NCBI GenBank assembly: GCA_964492595.1
Contig: CAZBKY010000001.1
Location: forward strand, 1 to 42,353
DNA length: 42,353 bases
Direction: 5' to 3'
Origin: an uncultured Muribaculaceae bacterium
GTDB taxonomy: Bacteria > Bacillota_I > Bacilli_A > RF39 > UBA660
Made by a program: the position numbers and the translations under genes. How positions within the stretch are numbered: the first letter of the stretch is position 1; each line of letters begins with the position of its first letter. The notes beneath the pieces are model-generated. The model was not told the DNA's origin. It did no database searches and worked only from the letters and a program-made list of their open reading frames with translations. Positions 2 to 34,632 of the stretch are shown here, piece after piece.

Positions 2-535
2 CATAATTTAAGACTTGTAGCTCATATTGTAAAAAAATATGATAATTTTAAAGAAGATCCAGATGATTTAATAAGTATAGGTACAATAGGGTTAATCAAA
101 GGAATTGATTCATATTCCCCTGATAAGAATGTTAAGCTGACAACTTATGTTGCTAAATGTGCAGAAAATGAAATTCTGATGTATTTTAGAAGTAATAAAA
201 AAAACATGAATAATGTAAGTCTAAATGACTGTATAGGTTTAGATAAAGATGGAAATGAAATAACTTTTTCCGATGTTGTAAAAGAACAGGATGAGGACAT
301 TATGGAAGGTATTTATTTAAGTGATAATATAAATTTGCTTAAAAAATATATAAACGTTTTAAACGATAGAGAAAAGAAAATTATTATAATGAGGTATGGA
401 CTTTTAAATGAAGATGAGCAAACCCAAAAGCAAATAGCCAAAAAGCTTGAAATAAGCAGAAGTTATGTTTCAAGAATAGAAAAAAGAGCATTAATAAAAA
501 TGCTCCGAGAATTTATAAAAAACAATACAGATTAA
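2..535 (+). CDS. sigK: RNA polymerase sporulation sigma factor SigK (5'-partial, continues upstream of window)
   Basis: Frame 2 is open from the window edge. The translation HNLRLVAHIVKKYDNF..DLISIGTIGLIKGIDSY...ENEILMYFR...DREKKIIIMRYGL...ISRSYVSRIEKRALIKM follows B. subtilis SigK regions 2-4 nearly residue for residue, as recalled from memory. Stop codon is TAA at 533-535. Confidence 0.85.
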   Translation, partial: HNLRLVAHIVKKYDNFKEDPDDLISIGTIGLIKGIDSYSPDKNVKLTTYVAKCAENEILMYFRSNKKNMNNVSLNDCIGLDKDGNEITFSDVVKEQDEDIMEGIYLSDNINLLKKYINVLNDREKKIIIMRYGLLNEDEQTQKQIAKKLEISRSYVSRIEKRALIKMLREFIKNNTD

Positions 536-9709: not shown

Positions 9710-10768
9710 CTATCGACTATTTTTTAAGTTTATACTTATTTTTCTACATATAAGTATAAGAAGTATTAATATTCCGCCTAAAGCGATAATAAATACGGGT
9801 AATTTTGAATAATCTTCAGATGTCTTTTTGTTTCCATAATTTATTGCAATAACCTCATCTTCATTATAAGCGGGCTTTATTTCTTCATTATTTTTATTAT
9901 TATAGATGTTTTTATAAATAATCTCGGATTCAACTGTTTTATATTCATAAAAGTATGTTTTTGTATTTTCATCTTTGATATATTCATTTAAATAAGTAAA
10001 ATATCCATCAAAATATTCTTTTTCATAACTATAACAATTGACATAACTATCTTTAAATCTGTAATATTTCTCTTCATAATTATCCATTTCATCCCAAGTA
10101 TATAAAGAAGTAATCTTATAGCTGCAGTAATATGTAGAACATGTCTTATATGTGCCGCCCAGAGTCGTTATTCCTTTAGATTTTACAGGATACTTGTAAT
10201 CAACCAACAATGTAGATTTAAAGTATAAAATATTATTAGTTTTCTCAAATCTAATCTCGACTTGTGGAACTTCAGTATGAAAATTATTGAGATTTAAAAA
10301 TATTTTAGAATCTTTATTTAAAATTAAATTTCCAGCTTCATTTGTAGTGCAATTTATGCAGTGCGCTAATTCAAAAGCTATATTCTTGTCGCTATTATCT
10401 GTAATTACAATACTCTTTAATTCTAAAAATTCAACTATAAAATTATCAATCAAAATTGTATTATATTTTTCATCAGATAAATCAATAATATTCACTTTTT
10501 CTTCTATTGTCCTGCCTTCTTTTTCATCGGGCTTAACCAAGTTCCATTCACTAAAGTTATTTTCTACTTCATCAAAATATTCGCAATTGTGTTTAACAGC
10601 ATTTTCGTAATGTTCGTTTACCTTTTTTAGTTTATACCATTTATATCTTTCCTCAACACTTGTAATAATTATGCTTTTATTTAAAGGTAGTTCATTTGTA
10701 AATGTTTTAGAATATATATCAGGCATAAATAAAAAAGTACATAATATAAAAATTATTGTTTTTTTCAA
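9710..10768 (-). CDS. hypothetical secreted protein with C-terminal membrane anchor, Tyr/Cys-rich
   Basis: 352-aa ORF with an N-terminal signal-like segment (MKKTIIFILCTFLFM) and a C-terminal TM helix (LPVFIIALGGILILLILI). No family recognised. Confidence 0.55.
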   Translation of the reverse strand: MKKTIIFILCTFLFMPDIYSKTFTNELPLNKSIIITSVEERYKWYKLKKVNEHYENAVKHNCEYFDEVENNFSEWNLVKPDEKEGRTIEEKVNIIDLSDEKYNTILIDNFIVEFLELKSIVITDNSDKNIAFELAHCINCTTNEAGNLILNKDSKIFLNLNNFHTEVPQVEIRFEKTNNILYFKSTLLVDYKYPVKSKGITTLGGTYKTCSTYYCSYKITSLYTWDEMDNYEEKYYRFKDSYVNCYSYEKEYFDGYFTYLNEYIKDENTKTYFYEYKTVESEIIYKNIYNNKNNEEIKPAYNEDEVIAINYGNKKTSEDYSKLPVFIIALGGILILLILICRKISINLKNSR

Positions 10769-10883
10769 TTTCTCCTCCTCTATTTTTATTATACGAGTGT
10801 TTTTTTTAAAACACTTTTTTGTTTTTAAGTTTTTTTGTCATAAATATTTAAAAATAAAGAATAATAATATTGGAGTGATTTTT

Positions 10884-17063: not shown

Positions 17064-18152
17064 TTATGTTAAATCTTCAAATGTTTTCTCTTTAATTATT
17101 TTATTATTTTCTTTTAATCTTTCATTTTCGGGATCTAATTTTAAAGCTATTTCATTAAATTCAAGGGCTTTTGAATATAAACCTATATTATAATAACTTA
17201 TTGAACTCAAATCATATATCGTGCTATCCCATGAAAAATTCTCATTAATATATGTTTTTCCTCTTTCTTTTATCTTTAAGGCTTCATCACACATGTGCAG
17301 ACAGGCAAGCCAATTTTCAGTTTCATACTCCAGTAATGCCATCTCTACATATGGCTCTCTTAAATATGGGCTTTCTATTATTGCCTTATATAACCATTCT
17401 CTAGATAAATCATATTGTTTTTTATATTTATAACATCTTGCAATATAACGCATTGAAGCACATCTTTCATCTTTCCAAGTTGCCTTTTCTAAAGATAAAT
17501 GTTTTATTAAAGTTTTAATTGCCTCATCGTACATTTGATAAAACATATATTCTCTTCCTAAATAATGAACGTTTCGGTCATCAGAGGGATCTTCTTTAAC
17601 TGATAATTCTAAAAGCGGTAAATAATTAGATCGAGACTTGGTATCATCTGGATAATGATTTACTTCAAACCCTGAAACATAGTTTATTTTTTCAATTCCA
17701 TCTCCTATATATTTTAAAACTTCATGAACAGGATGCTTCCAAGTATAATCTTTTTTATTGTGTATTTTTTCAATCATGAAACTTACTGATGGTTTACCAT
17801 ACTTATCAAAACTCCAATTATAGTTATATTTCAATCTTGTAGTTTTTTCATCCCAGATTTTTTCAACATGTTTTCTCCATCCTTTTGTTATTATTTCATC
17901 TAAATCCGTAGATACACATATATCGATGTTATCTGGTATTTTTTTTAAAACCATATTTCTAGCCTTGTCAAATCTCCATGGATTTACTTTTATTTTATAT
18001 ACTTTTGCACCTAATTTTTTTAATTTTAAAATTGTATCATCAGTTGAACCTGTATCTCCCACTATTACCATATCTGCTTCTTTTACAGATTCATACCACC
18101 TTTCAACGAATTTACTTTCATTCTTTGCAATTGCATAAACGCATATTTTCAT
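17064..18152 (-). CDS. family-2 glycosyltransferase fused to TPR repeats
   Basis: 362 aa. GT-A N-terminus (ICVYAIAKNE...VGDTGSTDDT, DxD at TDLDE) and a C-terminal half with TPR-like Y/A/L periodicity. It lies directly downstream of the collagen-like gene on the same strand. Confidence 0.7.
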   Translation of the reverse strand: MKICVYAIAKNESKFVERWYESVKEADMVIVGDTGSTDDTILKLKKLGAKVYKIKVNPWRFDKARNMVLKKIPDNIDICVSTDLDEIITKGWRKHVEKIWDEKTTRLKYNYNWSFDKYGKPSVSFMIEKIHNKKDYTWKHPVHEVLKYIGDGIEKINYVSGFEVNHYPDDTKSRSNYLPLLELSVKEDPSDDRNVHYLGREYMFYQMYDEAIKTLIKHLSLEKATWKDERCASMRYIARCYKYKKQYDLSREWLYKAIIESPYLREPYVEMALLEYETENWLACLHMCDEALKIKERGKTYINENFSWDSTIYDLSSISYYNIGLYSKALEFNEIALKLDPENERLKENNKIIKEKTFEDLT

Positions 18153-18255
18153 TAAATACCTCCTATAGTTATTATATGAATTTAAAGCATATTAAAAGCC
18201 ATTTTTTGATGTGCACCCTAATGGATGCGGTTCATTTTAGTGGCTTTTATTTTTA

Positions 18256-19302
18256 TTAAACTATGTTTATTCCTGCACTAGCATAGCCAGTTACAGTTTG
18301 TAATAAATTTAATCCATTAGCATTTATAGTAAATACCATTAATAATCTTGTTCCTGCAGTTACTGCAATATTTAATCCAGTTAAGTTGCCTCTAACAATA
18401 TCTCCTATATTTATTATTCCACTCAAGTTCGGTGTTAAAGTTACATCTGTTCCCGCTACTGGAGTGAAAATATTATTAGGAGTTGTTGATTGATATAACT
18501 GAGCATGAACAGTAATATCTGTACTTATAAGTGTCAATCCAAGTACTACACTAAAATAAGCTTCTATATCTGTAATTGTTCCATTTCTTGGAACTGAAAA
18601 TGCCAAATTGGCTAATAAACCTGCAGCTCCTGTTAAATCAATATTTAGACCCAATATGTTTGGTAATGTTGTACTTGTTCCAAATCCGACTATAGCTGGT
18701 AATCCTGCCAATCCCAAAGCAATACTTGTAGGAGCTACTGGTAATCCTGAAGCATATGGTATTATTGCACCTGCTCCATTTAAACCTGCTGTTCCCTGTG
18801 GTCCAGTCGGACCGGTTGCACCTTGAATTCCTTGAATTCCTTGTGGTCCAGTTGGTCCAGTTGGTCCGGTTGGCCCAGTTGCTCCATTTGTTCCAGCATT
18901 ACCTTGTGGCCCTGTCGGTCCTGTGGCTCCTATTGGCCCCTGGATTCCTTGAGCACCTTGTGGTCCTATAATTCCTTGAGGTCCGGTTGCTCCCATCGCT
19001 CCAGTTGGACCAGTAGCTCCATTTGCACCTTGGGCGCCTTGTGGCCCTTGAGGGCCTACTTCACCCTGAGAACCTTGAGAACCATTTGCTCCGGTTGCAC
19101 CTGTTGGTCCTTGTATTCCTTGTACTCCCTGAACTCCCTGCGGACCCTGTGGACCTGTTGATCCGGTTGGCCCTGTCGGTCCAGTTGGACCAGTTGGCCC
19201 TGTCGGTCCTCCCGAAGGTCCTGTTGGTCCTGTCGGCCCAGTAGGACCATAACATGTATAACATGGACAAGGATTATTACATAAATTTTTAAATCCATCC
19301 AT
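18256..19302 (-). CDS. collagen-like exosporium glycoprotein, BclB-type C-terminal domain
   Basis: About 160 residues of uninterrupted G-x-y triplets (GPT, GPQ, GAT...) are followed by IIPYASG..., the start of the BclB-related C-terminal domain. The N-terminus is Cys-rich ([11 protein letters not shown]). ATG at 19302 follows GAGGTG, whereas the track start at 19311 is a GTG inside the RBS. Confidence 0.8.
18760..19250 (-). repeat. collagen G-x-y triplet-repeat coding tract (locally GC-rich)
   Basis: Runs of ggtcc/ggacc 9-mers encode (GPT)n and GxQ triplets. All six frames lack stops here, which produces several spurious overlapping ORFs in the track. Confidence 0.9.
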
Positions 19303-19481
19303 TTTTTTCACCTCTTTTTCTTACATTTTATTGTATGAAGTTAAATAAAAATAGAACTTACATTAAACTAAGTTTAGGTGAAAATGTGTTAATGTATTAT
19401 TTTCAATTTCTTTAATAAAACAGTACAAAAATAATTGTTTATATTTTTATATTAACATAGAATTTAATAAGGAGAATAATT

Positions 19482-20255
19482 ATGGACACAATTGAAAATC
19501 AATCCTCTATTGAATATGATTATAAAATAAATCCAACTGGCGATGCAATTACAACAGATTTAGAAAGTAATATAACTGTGACCGATCTTGCAATTGGAGA
19601 ATTAAATATGATTAAATCAGTAGATAAAACCTATGCAACTATTGGAGATATACTAACATACACCATAGTTTTAAATAATAATGGAAATGTTTTGTTAACA
19701 GATATTGTATTTAAAGATATTGTACCAACTGGTGCTACTTTTGTAAGTGGAAGTGTTATAGTAGATGGAACTTCTCAACCAACATATAATCCCAATACTG
19801 GATTTAATGTCGGAAGTTTGTTAATACTCGGATCTAGAACAATTACTTTTCAAGTAGAAGTAACTTCTTTGCCTGATCCTAATACTATTATCAATACCTC
19901 ATCTGCAACATATAATTATCTTGTTATTATTCCTATAGGGGGAAGTTCTACAAGCAACAGTGTTACTACAACTATAAATGTTAATAATTTAGAAATTGTT
20001 AAATCTGCTAGTCCTTCAACTGTAACAAAAGGAGATACTTTAACTTATACTACTGTAATAACAAATAATGGAAATATAGATGCCACTGATATAATGTTTA
20101 CCGATATAGTGCCTTCAGAATTAACATTTGTCCCTGAAAGTGTTACTATAGATGGAACCCCTTACTCAAGCTATGATCCTAATGATGGATTTAGTTTAGG
20201 AACATTAAGCCCAGGAGATAGCATCACAGTAGTATTTGAAACAACTGTTAACTAA
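19482..20255 (+). CDS. DUF11 (conserved repeat domain) protein, two repeats, no signal peptide
   Basis: Two clear internal repeats: KSVDKTYATIGDILTYTIVLNNNGNVLLTDIVFKDIVPTGATFVSGSVIVDG and KSASPSTVTKGDTLTYTTVITNNGNIDATDIMFTDIVPSELTFVPESVTIDG. AAGGAG RBS. It is divergent from the collagen-like gene. Confidence 0.75.
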   Translation: MDTIENQSSIEYDYKINPTGDAITTDLESNITVTDLAIGELNMIKSVDKTYATIGDILTYTIVLNNNGNVLLTDIVFKDIVPTGATFVSGSVIVDGTSQPTYNPNTGFNVGSLLILGSRTITFQVEVTSLPDPNTIINTSSATYNYLVIIPIGGSSTSNSVTTTINVNNLEIVKSASPSTVTKGDTLTYTTVITNNGNIDATDIMFTDIVPSELTFVPESVTIDGTPYSSYDPNDGFSLGTLSPGDSITVVFETTVN

Positions 20256-20668
20256 TGGAAATCATTAACACATCTGAAATATCATATATAGTAAATGGAA
20301 CTTTAGTTGATAGTTCAAGTAACACTTCAGTAACTAAGCGAATAGAACCGATTATTTATTTTACAAAATGTGTTAATGAGTGTTTAATTAAAGTAGTTAT
20401 AAAAAATAATAGCGGAACTATTATTAAAAATGTTTTATATAAGGAATGTTTGGATAAAGATTTATATGTAAAAGGTACCTTAAAAATTAACAATAAAAGT
20501 TTTGACTACAATCCTTTTTATAGTATATGTTTAAAAAATATTGCAAATAATGAAATAATAAAAATAGAATATAAAATAAAAAAGAATTATTATAATAATA
20601 AATCACTATTAAGATATAACTTTGTATTAAATAATGGCTATCAAACTACATATATATTAAGTAGTTAA
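20255..20668 (+). CDS. hypothetical protein, possibly a degenerate DUF11-like beta-sandwich
   Basis: 137-aa ORF whose ATG shares 1 nt with the upstream TAA (TAATG). It has weak V..N.G.....V pattern similarity to the upstream repeats. No signal peptide. Confidence 0.45.
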   Translation: MEIINTSEISYIVNGTLVDSSSNTSVTKRIEPIIYFTKCVNECLIKVVIKNNSGTIIKNVLYKECLDKDLYVKGTLKINNKSFDYNPFYSICLKNIANNEIIKIEYKIKKNYYNNKSLLRYNFVLNNGYQTTYILSS

Positions 20669-34317: not shown

Positions 34318-34632
34318 TTAGAAATTACAACATGAACCAACTTGTTCATTTACTACTACATTTTCTTCAGTACAGGTATAGCTAGGTCTAAAAACATGTC
34401 TGTAAATATGATGATTTATAATTCTAGTATTTACAGGACAAATATGAGGAACAGTATGGCATATTGTTTTATGTATTTGTCTTTCTCTAGGACATTCCAT
34501 TACTTCTGGCATCATACATCCTGACATACTACTTGTTGCAGGAGTATTGTAATCTATCTCTTGATTTGAAGTTATATTAACTTCACTTGCTCCTTCCACA
34601 TTATATCCTTGGTACATTCCATAATCTTTCAT
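34318..34632 (-). CDS. CotD-like spore coat protein
   Basis: His/Cys-rich. ..HKTICHTVPHICPVNTRIINHHIYRHVFRPSYT.. resembles the inner spore coat protein D pattern (V.P...P.HT..VNH...H.H.YP.T.S). It ends in CCNF. ATG at 34632 follows AAGGAG. A SigK-type promoter lies upstream. Confidence 0.6.
   Translation of the reverse strand: MKDYGMYQGYNVEGASEVNITSNQEIDYNTPATSSMSGCMMPEVMECPRERQIHKTICHTVPHICPVNTRIINHHIYRHVFRPSYTCTEENVVVNEQVGSCCNF

Follow-up and report, generated by a model that had tools for sequence, protein, structure and literature searches.

The ribbon appendages of Clostridium taeniosporum spores consist, according to the description of the work of Walker et al. (2007) given in PMC5749712, mainly of the proteins P29a and P29b and of the collagen-like glycoprotein GP85. 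As stated in the same source, P29a and P29b are proteins of 269 aa with internal repeats, their genes are adjacent and have sigmaK promoters, and a DUF11 domain occurs in four of the nine proteins of the cluster; DUF11 spore proteins, CrdA-C, are also cited there for the B. cereus group. We describe here a locus of four open reading frames (ORFs) in contig CAZBKY010000001.1 of an uncultured bacterium. It occupies positions 17064-20668 of a stretch of 42,353 nt (hereafter, the window), to which all coordinates refer unless another contig is named, and encodes a 257-aa double-DUF11 protein (DUF11x2), a 137-aa protein whose ORF is coupled to that of DUF11x2 (p137), a collagen-like protein of the BclB type, and a GT2-TPR glycosyltransferase (GT). 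The most unusual feature of this locus, and the new point of this work, is the permuted architecture of DUF11x2, which went unnoticed in an earlier interpretation of the window made without database searches (the sequence-only reading).

The DUF11 domain, recently renamed CLIPPER, adopts a CnaA-like fold in which an Asp catalyses an intramolecular isopeptide between a Lys and an Asn, as in PDB entry 9IFR (PMC12617251). DUF11 domains are also found in the F-Anchor-3 protein of the clostridial endospore appendages F-ENA (PMC12357932). The view expressed in the sequence-only reading that DUF11 proteins were a previously unappreciated spore-surface component thus had to be given up, since P29a/P29b, CrdA-C and F-Anchor-3 were already known (PMC5749712, PMC12357932). 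Donor-strand exchange is locked by an intermolecular Lys-Asn isopeptide in BsaA of C. perfringens (PMC11580942), archaeal thread filaments likewise combine donor-strand exchange with an intermolecular isopeptide (PMC9715654), and the A-ENA spore fibres are isopeptide-crosslinked (PMC13111695). In C. difficile, the gene of the glycosyltransferase SgtA adjoins that of BclA3, and O-GlcNAc is added to Thr of the collagen repeats (PMC7157674). Appendages and exosporia set the adhesion, clumping and persistence of spores, and little is known of their components except in Bacillus and a few clostridia.

Results

Domain Architecture of the Double-DUF11 Protein

All four ORFs were recovered where the sequence-only reading had placed them, and the layout that it proposed was confirmed: the collagen gene is followed by the GT gene on the minus strand, and both are divergent from the DUF11x2 gene and the coupled p137 ORF on the plus strand (Table 1). 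Residues 1-37 of DUF11x2 have two homologous counterparts: residues 131-167 further along the chain, which form the strands beta8-beta9 that close domain 1 and contain Asn138, and the first 30 residues of p137. The two DUF11x2 repeats and p137 align as three units in a tag-first register, in which the ends of the genes do not coincide with those of the domains. Repeat 2 stops after beta7: PF01345 was matched only at profile positions 2-84 of 114, and then the protein ends. DUF11x2 thus begins with an orphan tag made of two closing strands and ends with a domain that lacks its own.

The residues expected for isopeptide formation were compared with those of 9IFR. In the alignment obtained through the family profile, K45 and D79 of domain 1 fall on the isopeptide Lys and the catalytic Asp of 9IFR, and this alignment ends 1-2 residues before N138; D79 and N138 lie 34 and 93 residues after K45, the corresponding distances in 9IFR being 33 and 91. 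Only the family profile reached 9IFR, and a direct phmmer search of DUF11x2 against the PDB gave no match. Conservation was counted over 51 relatives of DUF11x2, down to 30% identity. The Asn of the orphan tag (N6) and the Lys of the open domain 2 (K174) are each kept in 50 of them and the Asp of domain 2 (D208) in all 51; these three residues are thus conserved as well as or better than the domain 1 triad K45/D79/N138, which is kept in 49, 49 and 48 relatives, respectively. The C-terminal end ...F.T.V(N/D) was found in 51/51. An AlphaFold2 (AF2) model of DUF11x2, with a mean local confidence (pLDDT) of 96 and a predicted TM-score (pTM) of 0.77, has tag strands at residues 3-14 and 23-35 and resembles 9IFR (Foldseek TM 0.67) and several pilins. 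Within the genome that holds the window, DUF11x2 and p137 are the only proteins that carry the tag motif.

The closest described counterpart was found in a Clostridiaceae genome, G209, which contains a cluster in gene-by-gene agreement with the C. taeniosporum appendage locus as published. Its first part encodes a Cys-rich 166-aa product, two SPOCS proteins of 158 and 160 aa (corresponding to HYPO2/3), and a DUF11 and SPOCS protein of ~413 aa (CRD2); its second part encodes a 269-aa protein with two DUF11 domains (P29a), a collagen protein with a BclA_C domain, a 266-aa protein with two DUF11 domains (P29b), and a GT2-TPR enzyme. DUF11x2 is 30% identical to the P29a-like protein over 224 aa (E-value 3e-26), its residues 40-256 matching residues 3-219. 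Since the P29a-like protein begins at DUF11x2 residue 40 and runs ~50 residues past the DUF11x2 C-terminus, the DUF11x2 family is, judging from this alignment, a circular permutant of P29 in which two strands have moved from the tail to the head. The GT of the window and that of G209 are also homologous (27% identity, E-value 3e-15). The C-terminal domains of the two collagen proteins are unrelated, being of the BclB type in the window and of the BclA_C type in G209, and the window collagen protein was for this reason rejected as a GP85 orthologue.

DUF11x2 also aligns almost gaplessly, linkers included, with two-repeat units of tandem DUF11 proteins of ~2,700 aa. Such giant proteins, some longer than 4,000 aa, are encoded by ~72 of 384 Clostridiaceae genomes and also in L003, L004, L006 and L007; they have roughly 20 or more tandem repeats, which are 40-48% identical to the window DUF11x2.

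The Coupled 137-Residue Protein

The ATG of p137 overlaps the stop codon of DUF11x2 or follows it within 2 nt in nine of nine loci, the arrangement being exactly TAATG in seven of them, and no Shine-Dalgarno sequence precedes this ATG in any of the nine. The conserved stop/start overlap together with the missing Shine-Dalgarno sequence points to a reinitiation-dependent synthesis: p137 is probably made by termination-reinitiation, and probably in smaller amounts than DUF11x2.

In domain searches, p137 gave no match to any family, PF12673 included, and a word-based search for homologues returned no protein other than that of the window. With a profile built from nine p137 homologues, the giant tandem DUF11 proteins were matched in as many as 37 stretches per protein, usually at positions ~3-114 and sometimes up to ~135, and p137 itself weakly matched DUF11 repeats in G041 and G042. 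These profile matches indicate that p137, described in the sequence-only reading as a protein of unknown kind, belongs among the DUF11 units as a divergent member that is in tag-first register and possesses closing strands of its own. AF2 models it, with a pLDDT of 90, as a sandwich made up entirely of beta strands. The Foldseek comparison that had been suggested for this protein did return beta-sandwich relatives, all of them generic immunoglobulin-like ones. An identity of p137 with HYPO2/3 was also considered and rejected, since the HYPO2/3-like proteins belong to the SPOCS/SipL family (PF12673), as does the CRD2-like protein, and p137 is a DUF11 unit.

One relative, P0046 (L042:8001-8954), is a natural fusion whose joint coincides with the DUF11x2/p137 junction (...TVN-N-M-IAIINNTS...), and repeat 2 is there followed immediately, on one and the same chain, by a p137-type tag. 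Along this chain, a tag precedes two DUF11 domains, which are followed by another tag and a tail rich in Cys. The P0046 gene lies directly 3' of a dTDP-rhamnose (rml) and glycosyltransferase cluster that is reminiscent of spore-surface glycan operons. In another contig, two small tag-bearing ORFs of 92 and 143 aa (L018:9776-10054 and 10344-10775) follow the DUF11x2 gene, and the product of the longer one consists of a tag and a clearly recognisable DUF11 domain with its own Lys and Asn.

Table 1. Features of the locus, of its putative promoter boxes, and of the sigma factor genes of the same genome. Positions are those of the window, except for the second sigma gene, located on contig C2.
Feature	Position	Strand	Remarks
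GT2-TPR glycosyltransferase, 362 aa	17064-18152	-	PF00535 25.2 bits (cut-off 23.3), plus weak TPR matches
CATATAATA box	18170-18178	-	Mother-cell -10 type, 26 nt upstream of the GT start codon
Collagen-like glycoprotein, 348 aa from ATG	18256-19302 (ORF to 19311)	-	Cys-rich N-terminus, GXY region, BclB-type C-terminal domain
CATACAATA box	19329-19337	-	Upstream of the collagen gene; fits the -10 consensus of both sigmaK (CATA-N3-TA) and sigmaE (CATACA-T)
CATAGAATT box	19456-19464	+	CATA-N3-TA with one mismatch, 26 nt upstream of the DUF11x2 start
DUF11x2, 257 aa, two DUF11 repeats	19482-20255	+	PF01345 93.3 bits (cut-off 24.6; two stretches), TIGR01451 123 bits
Orphan N-terminal beta8-beta9 tag, aa 1-37	19482-19592	+	Carries Asn6 and the invariant S29-N30
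Complete CLIPPER/DUF11 domain 1, aa 38-166	19593-19979	+	K45/D79/N138 triad
Truncated CLIPPER/DUF11 domain 2, aa 167-257	19980-20252	+	K174 and D208; own beta8-beta9 absent, putative open acceptor
TAATG stop/start overlap of DUF11x2 and p137	20253-20257	+	No Shine-Dalgarno
p137, 137 aa	20255-20668	+	N-terminal beta8-beta9 tag, divergent complete DUF11-type beta-sandwich with own closing strands
sigmaE/K-type sigma gene	2-535	+	ORF cut by contig start; 243 bits to sigmaK model TIGR02846
Second sigmaE/K-type sigma gene	C2:53189-53857		288 bits

The Collagen-like Protein and the Glycosyltransferase

The start codon of the collagen gene was corrected to the ATG at 19302 (MDGFKNL...), which is the one that fits the ribosome-binding site (RBS) GAGGTG, instead of the GTG at 19311. 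The GXY region of the protein contains 53 triplets, of which 14 are GPT and 21 have Thr at the Y position, and it matched PF01391 with 81 bits. The last 170 residues matched the family TIGR03721, 'exosporium glycoprotein BclB-related', over the entire model (1-169 of 169) with 174.7 bits for a cut-off of 93.15; the score of the protein in the genome-wide search was 176.9 bits. These counts and matches bear out the earlier description of a GPT-rich collagen protein with a BclB-type C-terminal domain. By inspection only, no N-terminal exosporium-targeting motif of the Bacillus type was seen in this protein. Its N-terminus is instead rich in Cys, as are those of its orthologues and of the GP85-like protein. 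A second, shorter collagen-like gene is present in the genome on contig C6 (C6:12480-13196); its product is rich in Cys at the N-terminus (…CKCNPISYC…), contains ~22 GXY triplets and ends in a domain of ~115 aa that is not of the BclB type, and it may be another spore-surface fibre.

The GT matched phrog_13126, a family annotated as 'beta-1,4-glycosyltransferase', over its full length (E-value 4e-115). In every informative case, a member of this GT family adjoins a collagen-like gene: in the window, G016, L001, L017, G023, G209 and L041 (MT838491.1), the last of which encodes a GT 50% identical to that of the window directly downstream of a collagen-like gene. From this conserved adjacency and from the SgtA/BclA3 precedent, it is likely that the collagen repeats are the substrate of the GT, a candidate O-glycosyltransferase. 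The sequence-only reading had made the same suggestion, to which the recurrent collagen > GT order in G023 and in the distant high-GC contig lends support. The contig L041, filed as 'UNVERIFIED: Bacteriophage sp.', is a high-GC faecal contig with ordinary metabolic-looking genes and may be bacterial rather than viral. Homologues of the GT with 27-44% identity, annotated as beta-1,4-glycosyltransferases, were also observed in jumbo phages of Pseudomonas, Erwinia and Dickeya and in one actinomycete phage. A real phage family was found for the GT only, and a phage origin of the whole locus was therefore rejected.

Conservation of the Locus

The adjacency of the four genes is kept in three other genomes or contigs, G016, L001 and L017, where the gene order differs from that of the window: DUF11x2, the small ORF (p14x) and the GT gene follow each other, and the collagen gene is convergent. 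The locus is thus conserved as a unit in relatives, and as the adjacency survives a rearrangement of the gene order, a functional link between the four genes is suggested. In these three loci, the orthologues of DUF11x2 are 62-71% identical to the window protein, those of the GT, encoded next to the collagen gene, 54-59%, and the products of the small ORFs 33-36% identical to p137. The collagen proteins are 63-77% identical over the aligned stretch, with 77% for the C-terminal domain in L001 and 63-69% for the aligned stretch in L017, G016 and G023.

The DUF11x2 gene followed by the small ORF forms the invariant core of the locus, and this pair is found without a nearby collagen or GT gene in L002, L015/16, L018/19 and L020; in G023, only the collagen and GT genes are present, in this order, and there is no DUF11 gene. 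A BclB-type gene was detected in three (G000, G016 and G023) of 41 related genomes, and DUF11x2 in two (G000 and G016), both of which are among the three BclB-type carriers, a coincidence expected by chance with a probability of about 0.004. The co-occurrence of BclB-like and leaderless DUF11 genes, proposed as a check in the sequence-only reading, is thus observed, and the locus is accessory among the relatives. In a large protein database, the DUF11x2 family is a tight one of ~50 clusters from metagenomic 'Bacilli', 'Tenericutes' and 'Firmicutes' bins, and nearly all of its members are exactly 257 aa long.

The G+C content (GC) is 0.34-0.37 at 18001-20000 of the window, as against about 0.26 in the flanks; this is largely due to Gly, Pro and Thr codons and also fits an acquired accessory locus. 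In L015 and L016, which lack the collagen and GT genes and where the DUF11x2-p132 pair adjoins a gerA operon, a protein of ~370 aa is encoded 3' of the pair (L015:10342-11478 and L016:10331-11437); it contains the Collar domain of phage tails (PF07484) and weakly matched N_methyl.

Sporulation Genes and Putative Mother-Cell Expression Signals

The assembly that holds the window has 829 kb and is 87% complete. SpoIVA was detected above its curated cut-off in this genome, and a SpoIVA match was found in 22 of the 25 genomes of the window's family. With SpoIVA and two sigmaE/sigmaK-type sigma genes (Table 1), it is very probable that this lineage, whose genome is tiny, forms spores. No N-terminal hydrophobic segment was found in any of the four proteins of the locus (maximum Kyte-Doolittle value over 10 residues <=1.45 in the first 40 residues, compared with 2.77 for a neighbouring membrane protein), in line with the earlier statement that the structural proteins have no signal peptide.

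The -10 elements recognised by sigmaE and sigmaK both start with CATA. The consensus sequences are quoted in PMC5749712, and the box upstream of the collagen gene fits both. An exact CATA-N3-TA box was found at -23 to -30 in seven of ten DUF11x2 orthologues and a one-mismatch version in the other three, the window among them; L005 and L015 are near-duplicates, and the independent count is somewhat lower. Such a box also lies 30-35 nt upstream of the collagen gene in three of three orthologues (including L001 and L017). The intergenic sequence around the boxes is not conserved. In the genome as a whole, a box at that position precedes only 14 of 547 genes with an RBS, and these 14 include the collagen and GT genes as well as cotE (PF10628, 154 bits) and cotJB (PF12652, 84 bits). 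Taken together, the boxes constitute good indirect evidence for transcription in the mother cell. A His/Cys-rich protein of 104 aa is also encoded in the window (34318-34632, minus strand) behind a CATA-N3-TA box at -34; it looks CotD-like by eye, and this identity was not confirmed, as no Pfam match was obtained.

The sequence-only reading had also noticed a SigK-like -10 element without the -35 AC upstream of the collagen gene, and this is indeed what was found. No consistent -35 AC accompanies the boxes: a full sigmaK promoter with the -35 AC was seen in only one or two orthologues and was not retained as an established element, and with this -35 AC not conserved, the boxes may be read by either sigmaE or sigmaK. 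This lack, the mismatch in the window's own DUF11x2 box, and the fact that the likeness of G209 to C. taeniosporum rests on the match to published gene sizes and order weigh against the assignment of the locus to the spore surface. On the other side, the BclB-type domain, the leaderless proteins, the conserved CATA-N3-TA box, SpoIVA in the lineage and the homology to P29 support the spore-surface locus first suggested by the sequence-only reading. We therefore consider it likely that the locus is an accessory spore-surface module, expressed in the mother cell, of the same kind as the P29/GP85 appendage genes of C. taeniosporum.

Discussion

The architecture of DUF11x2 raises the question of which chain closes its last domain. 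We favour, tentatively and with somewhat less than even confidence, an assembly in trans, in which DUF11x2 forms a strand-complemented head-to-tail polymer, possibly locked by isopeptides, with p137 as its terminator. The BclB-type collagen protein would be made in the mother-cell cytoplasm, and its GPT/GAT repeats would be O-glycosylated by the adjacent GT2-TPR enzyme. DUF11x2 offers a tag (Asn6) that has no domain of its own and a domain 2 (Lys174, Asp208) that misses exactly those strands, so that the tag of one subunit may complete domain 2 of the next and build a rod resembling the stalk of a giant tandem DUF11 adhesin. Each junction would probably be locked by an autocatalytic isopeptide between Lys174 and Asn6'. 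Finally, p137, which has its tag on a complete domain and would be made only through reinitiation at TAATG, could fill the last open groove and thereby terminate or adapt the fibre. A donor strand with an Asn, and an acceptor with a Lys and an acidic residue but no strand of its own, are both present in DUF11x2 at the sequence level. In favour of the split-domain mechanism speak the tag-first register of the three units, the truncated PF01345 match of repeat 2, the alignment of K45 and D79 with 9IFR, the high conservation of N6, K174 and D208, the restriction of the tag to DUF11x2 and p137 in this genome, the P0046 fusion, and the alignment with two-repeat units of the giant tandem DUF11 proteins, which cannot be closed pairs; BsaA, the archaeal threads and the A-ENA fibres serve as precedents. 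With less confidence again, it is conceivable that DUF11x2 subunits make up the shaft of an endospore fibre of a new class, that is, a sortase-independent CnaA/CLIPPER pilus assembled in the cytoplasm, with intermolecular Lys-Asn locks, a length set by p137, and a glycosylated BclB-type collagen protein that decorates or accompanies it.

Several observations weigh against such a polymer. The AF2 monomer places the DUF11x2 tag confidently (pLDDT 89-97, pTM 0.77), as in-chain closure would too. P29 was named for a 29-kDa band and is thus extracted as a monomer (PMC5749712), so covalent polymerisation is evidently not needed by DUF11 appendage proteins. The tag Asn of p137 is found in only ~60% of the homologues, the rest having Ser, and any isopeptide lock involving p137 would thus not be universal. 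The surplus tag of p137 had been predicted to be disordered, and AF2 shows structured strands instead (pLDDT 80-91); a disordered tag was accordingly abandoned as support for a donor-only role of p137. No acceptor subunit was found near P0046.

Closure within the chain is the main rival to the polymer model. DUF11x2 would then be a closed circular permutant, the tag of which folds back to complete domain 2 of the same chain and gives a compact, pseudo-two-fold CLIPPER pair with two intramolecular isopeptides; the K174-N6 bond would nearly circularise the chain, and the product would be a P29-like monomeric building block, with p137 as a separate accessory protein. This would agree with the AF2 monomer, modelled confidently throughout, with the usual behaviour of circular permutants, which fold like their parents, and with the extraction of P29 as a monomer (PMC5749712); an antiparallel side-by-side pair also appears geometrically compatible with linkers of 4-5 residues. 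Closure would, however, leave no acceptor for the conserved tag of p137 and would give P0046 two tags for a single groove. Moreover, the linker between tag and domain 1 is homologous to that between domains 1 and 2 in long tandem arrays, in which a closing two-fold is impossible. We thus regard closure as unlikely. The AF2 model itself does not decide between cis and trans, and its Foldseek matches were uninformative on the domain orientation.

Improbable in our view, and more so than closure, is a 1:1 split-domain heterodimer, in which the tag of p137 completes domain 2 of DUF11x2 to give a three-domain rod and the tag of DUF11x2 docks into another partner on the spore surface or stays free. 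Translational coupling of the two genes in 9/9 loci and the P0046 fusion, with its p137-type tag after repeat 2, are what such a complex would predict. Yet N6 is kept in 50/51 relatives and the tag Asn of p137 in only ~60%, so that the invariant K174 and D208 fit N6 better; the 87%-complete genome encodes no other open acceptor or tag-bearing protein, and the missing Shine-Dalgarno sequence suggests that less p137 is made than DUF11x2. It is very improbable that the locus is unrelated to spores, as a vegetative cell-surface or phage-derived cassette on a mobile island (a collagen-like fibre with its GT, comparable to phage tail fibres): despite the phrog_13126 membership and jumbo-phage homologues of the GT, the matches of the collagen repeats to phage tail-fibre families and the patchy distribution among relatives, the phage matches of the collagen protein are limited to the GXY repeats and do not cover the BclB domain, neither DUF11x2 nor p137 matched a PHROG family, the surroundings of the locus contain no phage structural genes, the signal peptides or sortase signals that vegetative export would require are missing, and the locus shares a mother-cell-type box with cotE and cotJB.

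The spore-surface module of collagen protein, GT and DUF11 proteins is a relative of a known kind; what is new is the permuted and apparently split CLIPPER subunit with its coupled terminator. The locus extends the one experimentally defined clostridial appendage module (P29/GP85) to uncultured, very probably sporulating gut bacteria with genomes below 1 Mb. A permuted CLIPPER protein, as in the polymer model, would be a simple possible route to very robust fibres without secretion or assembly machinery, and if the intermolecular isopeptide forms, the tag and the open domain would constitute a natural split CnaA-type ligation pair, similar to SpyTag/SpyCatcher and of interest to protein engineers. 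The GT2-TPR family would become a candidate general glycosyltransferase of collagen repeats, common to bacteria and phages.

Comparison with Known Systems

The endospore appendages S/L-ENA, F-ENA and A-ENA (PMC12357932, PMC13111695) are machine-free, self-assembling fibres with N-terminal connector or hook peptides and collagen-like partners of the BclA type, and their covalent crosslinks are disulfides, or isopeptides in A-ENA. No DUF3992, DUF4183 or A-ENA helical-hairpin domain was found with Pfam in the four proteins of the locus, where the candidate subunit is a two-domain CLIPPER protein. The GT and its collagen partner can be likened, by gene position and presumed role, to SgtA and BclA3, as in both cases a glycosyltransferase gene lies beside a collagen-like exosporium gene with GPT repeats; the closest family of the window GT2-TPR enzyme is phrog_13126.

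With BsaA and the archaeal threads, DUF11x2 has in common an N-terminal donor strand with an Asn and an acceptor with a Lys and an acidic catalyst, a pair that is known in the window from sequence alone. The folds differ, being TasA-like in BsaA, a fold of their own in the threads, and CnaA-like CLIPPER here, and so does the route, as those proteins are secreted (through SipW or Sec), whereas the window proteins would be made in the mother-cell cytoplasm and polymerise there. None of the four proteins has a Pfam match to the TasA family or a signal peptide, and the resemblance to BsaA is thus one of mechanism and not of membership. DUF11x2 resembles the CLIPPER domain 9IFR in its PF01345 match, its CnaA-like immunoglobulin fold, the aligned Lys and catalytic Asp, and an Asn on the penultimate strand at the same spacing. 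The known examples, however, belong to secreted stalks and have their triad complete within a single chain; in DUF11x2, there is no signal peptide, and the Asn strand of one domain is supplied from elsewhere, either from its own N-terminus or from another chain.

The C. taeniosporum module is the closest in composition, with a leaderless two-DUF11 protein of ~260 aa and, next to it, a collagen protein that is rich in Cys at its N-terminus and a homologous GT2-TPR enzyme, as well as SigmaK-type promoter boxes. It differs from the window locus in four respects. P29a has two complete domains, whereas DUF11x2 is permuted, with its last domain open; the collagen partner in the window is of the BclB type (TIGR03721) and not of the BclA_C type; the small partner is the DUF11 unit p137 instead of a SPOCS/SipL protein (HYPO2/3); and the host is a 0.8-Mb uncultured lineage rather than a Clostridium.

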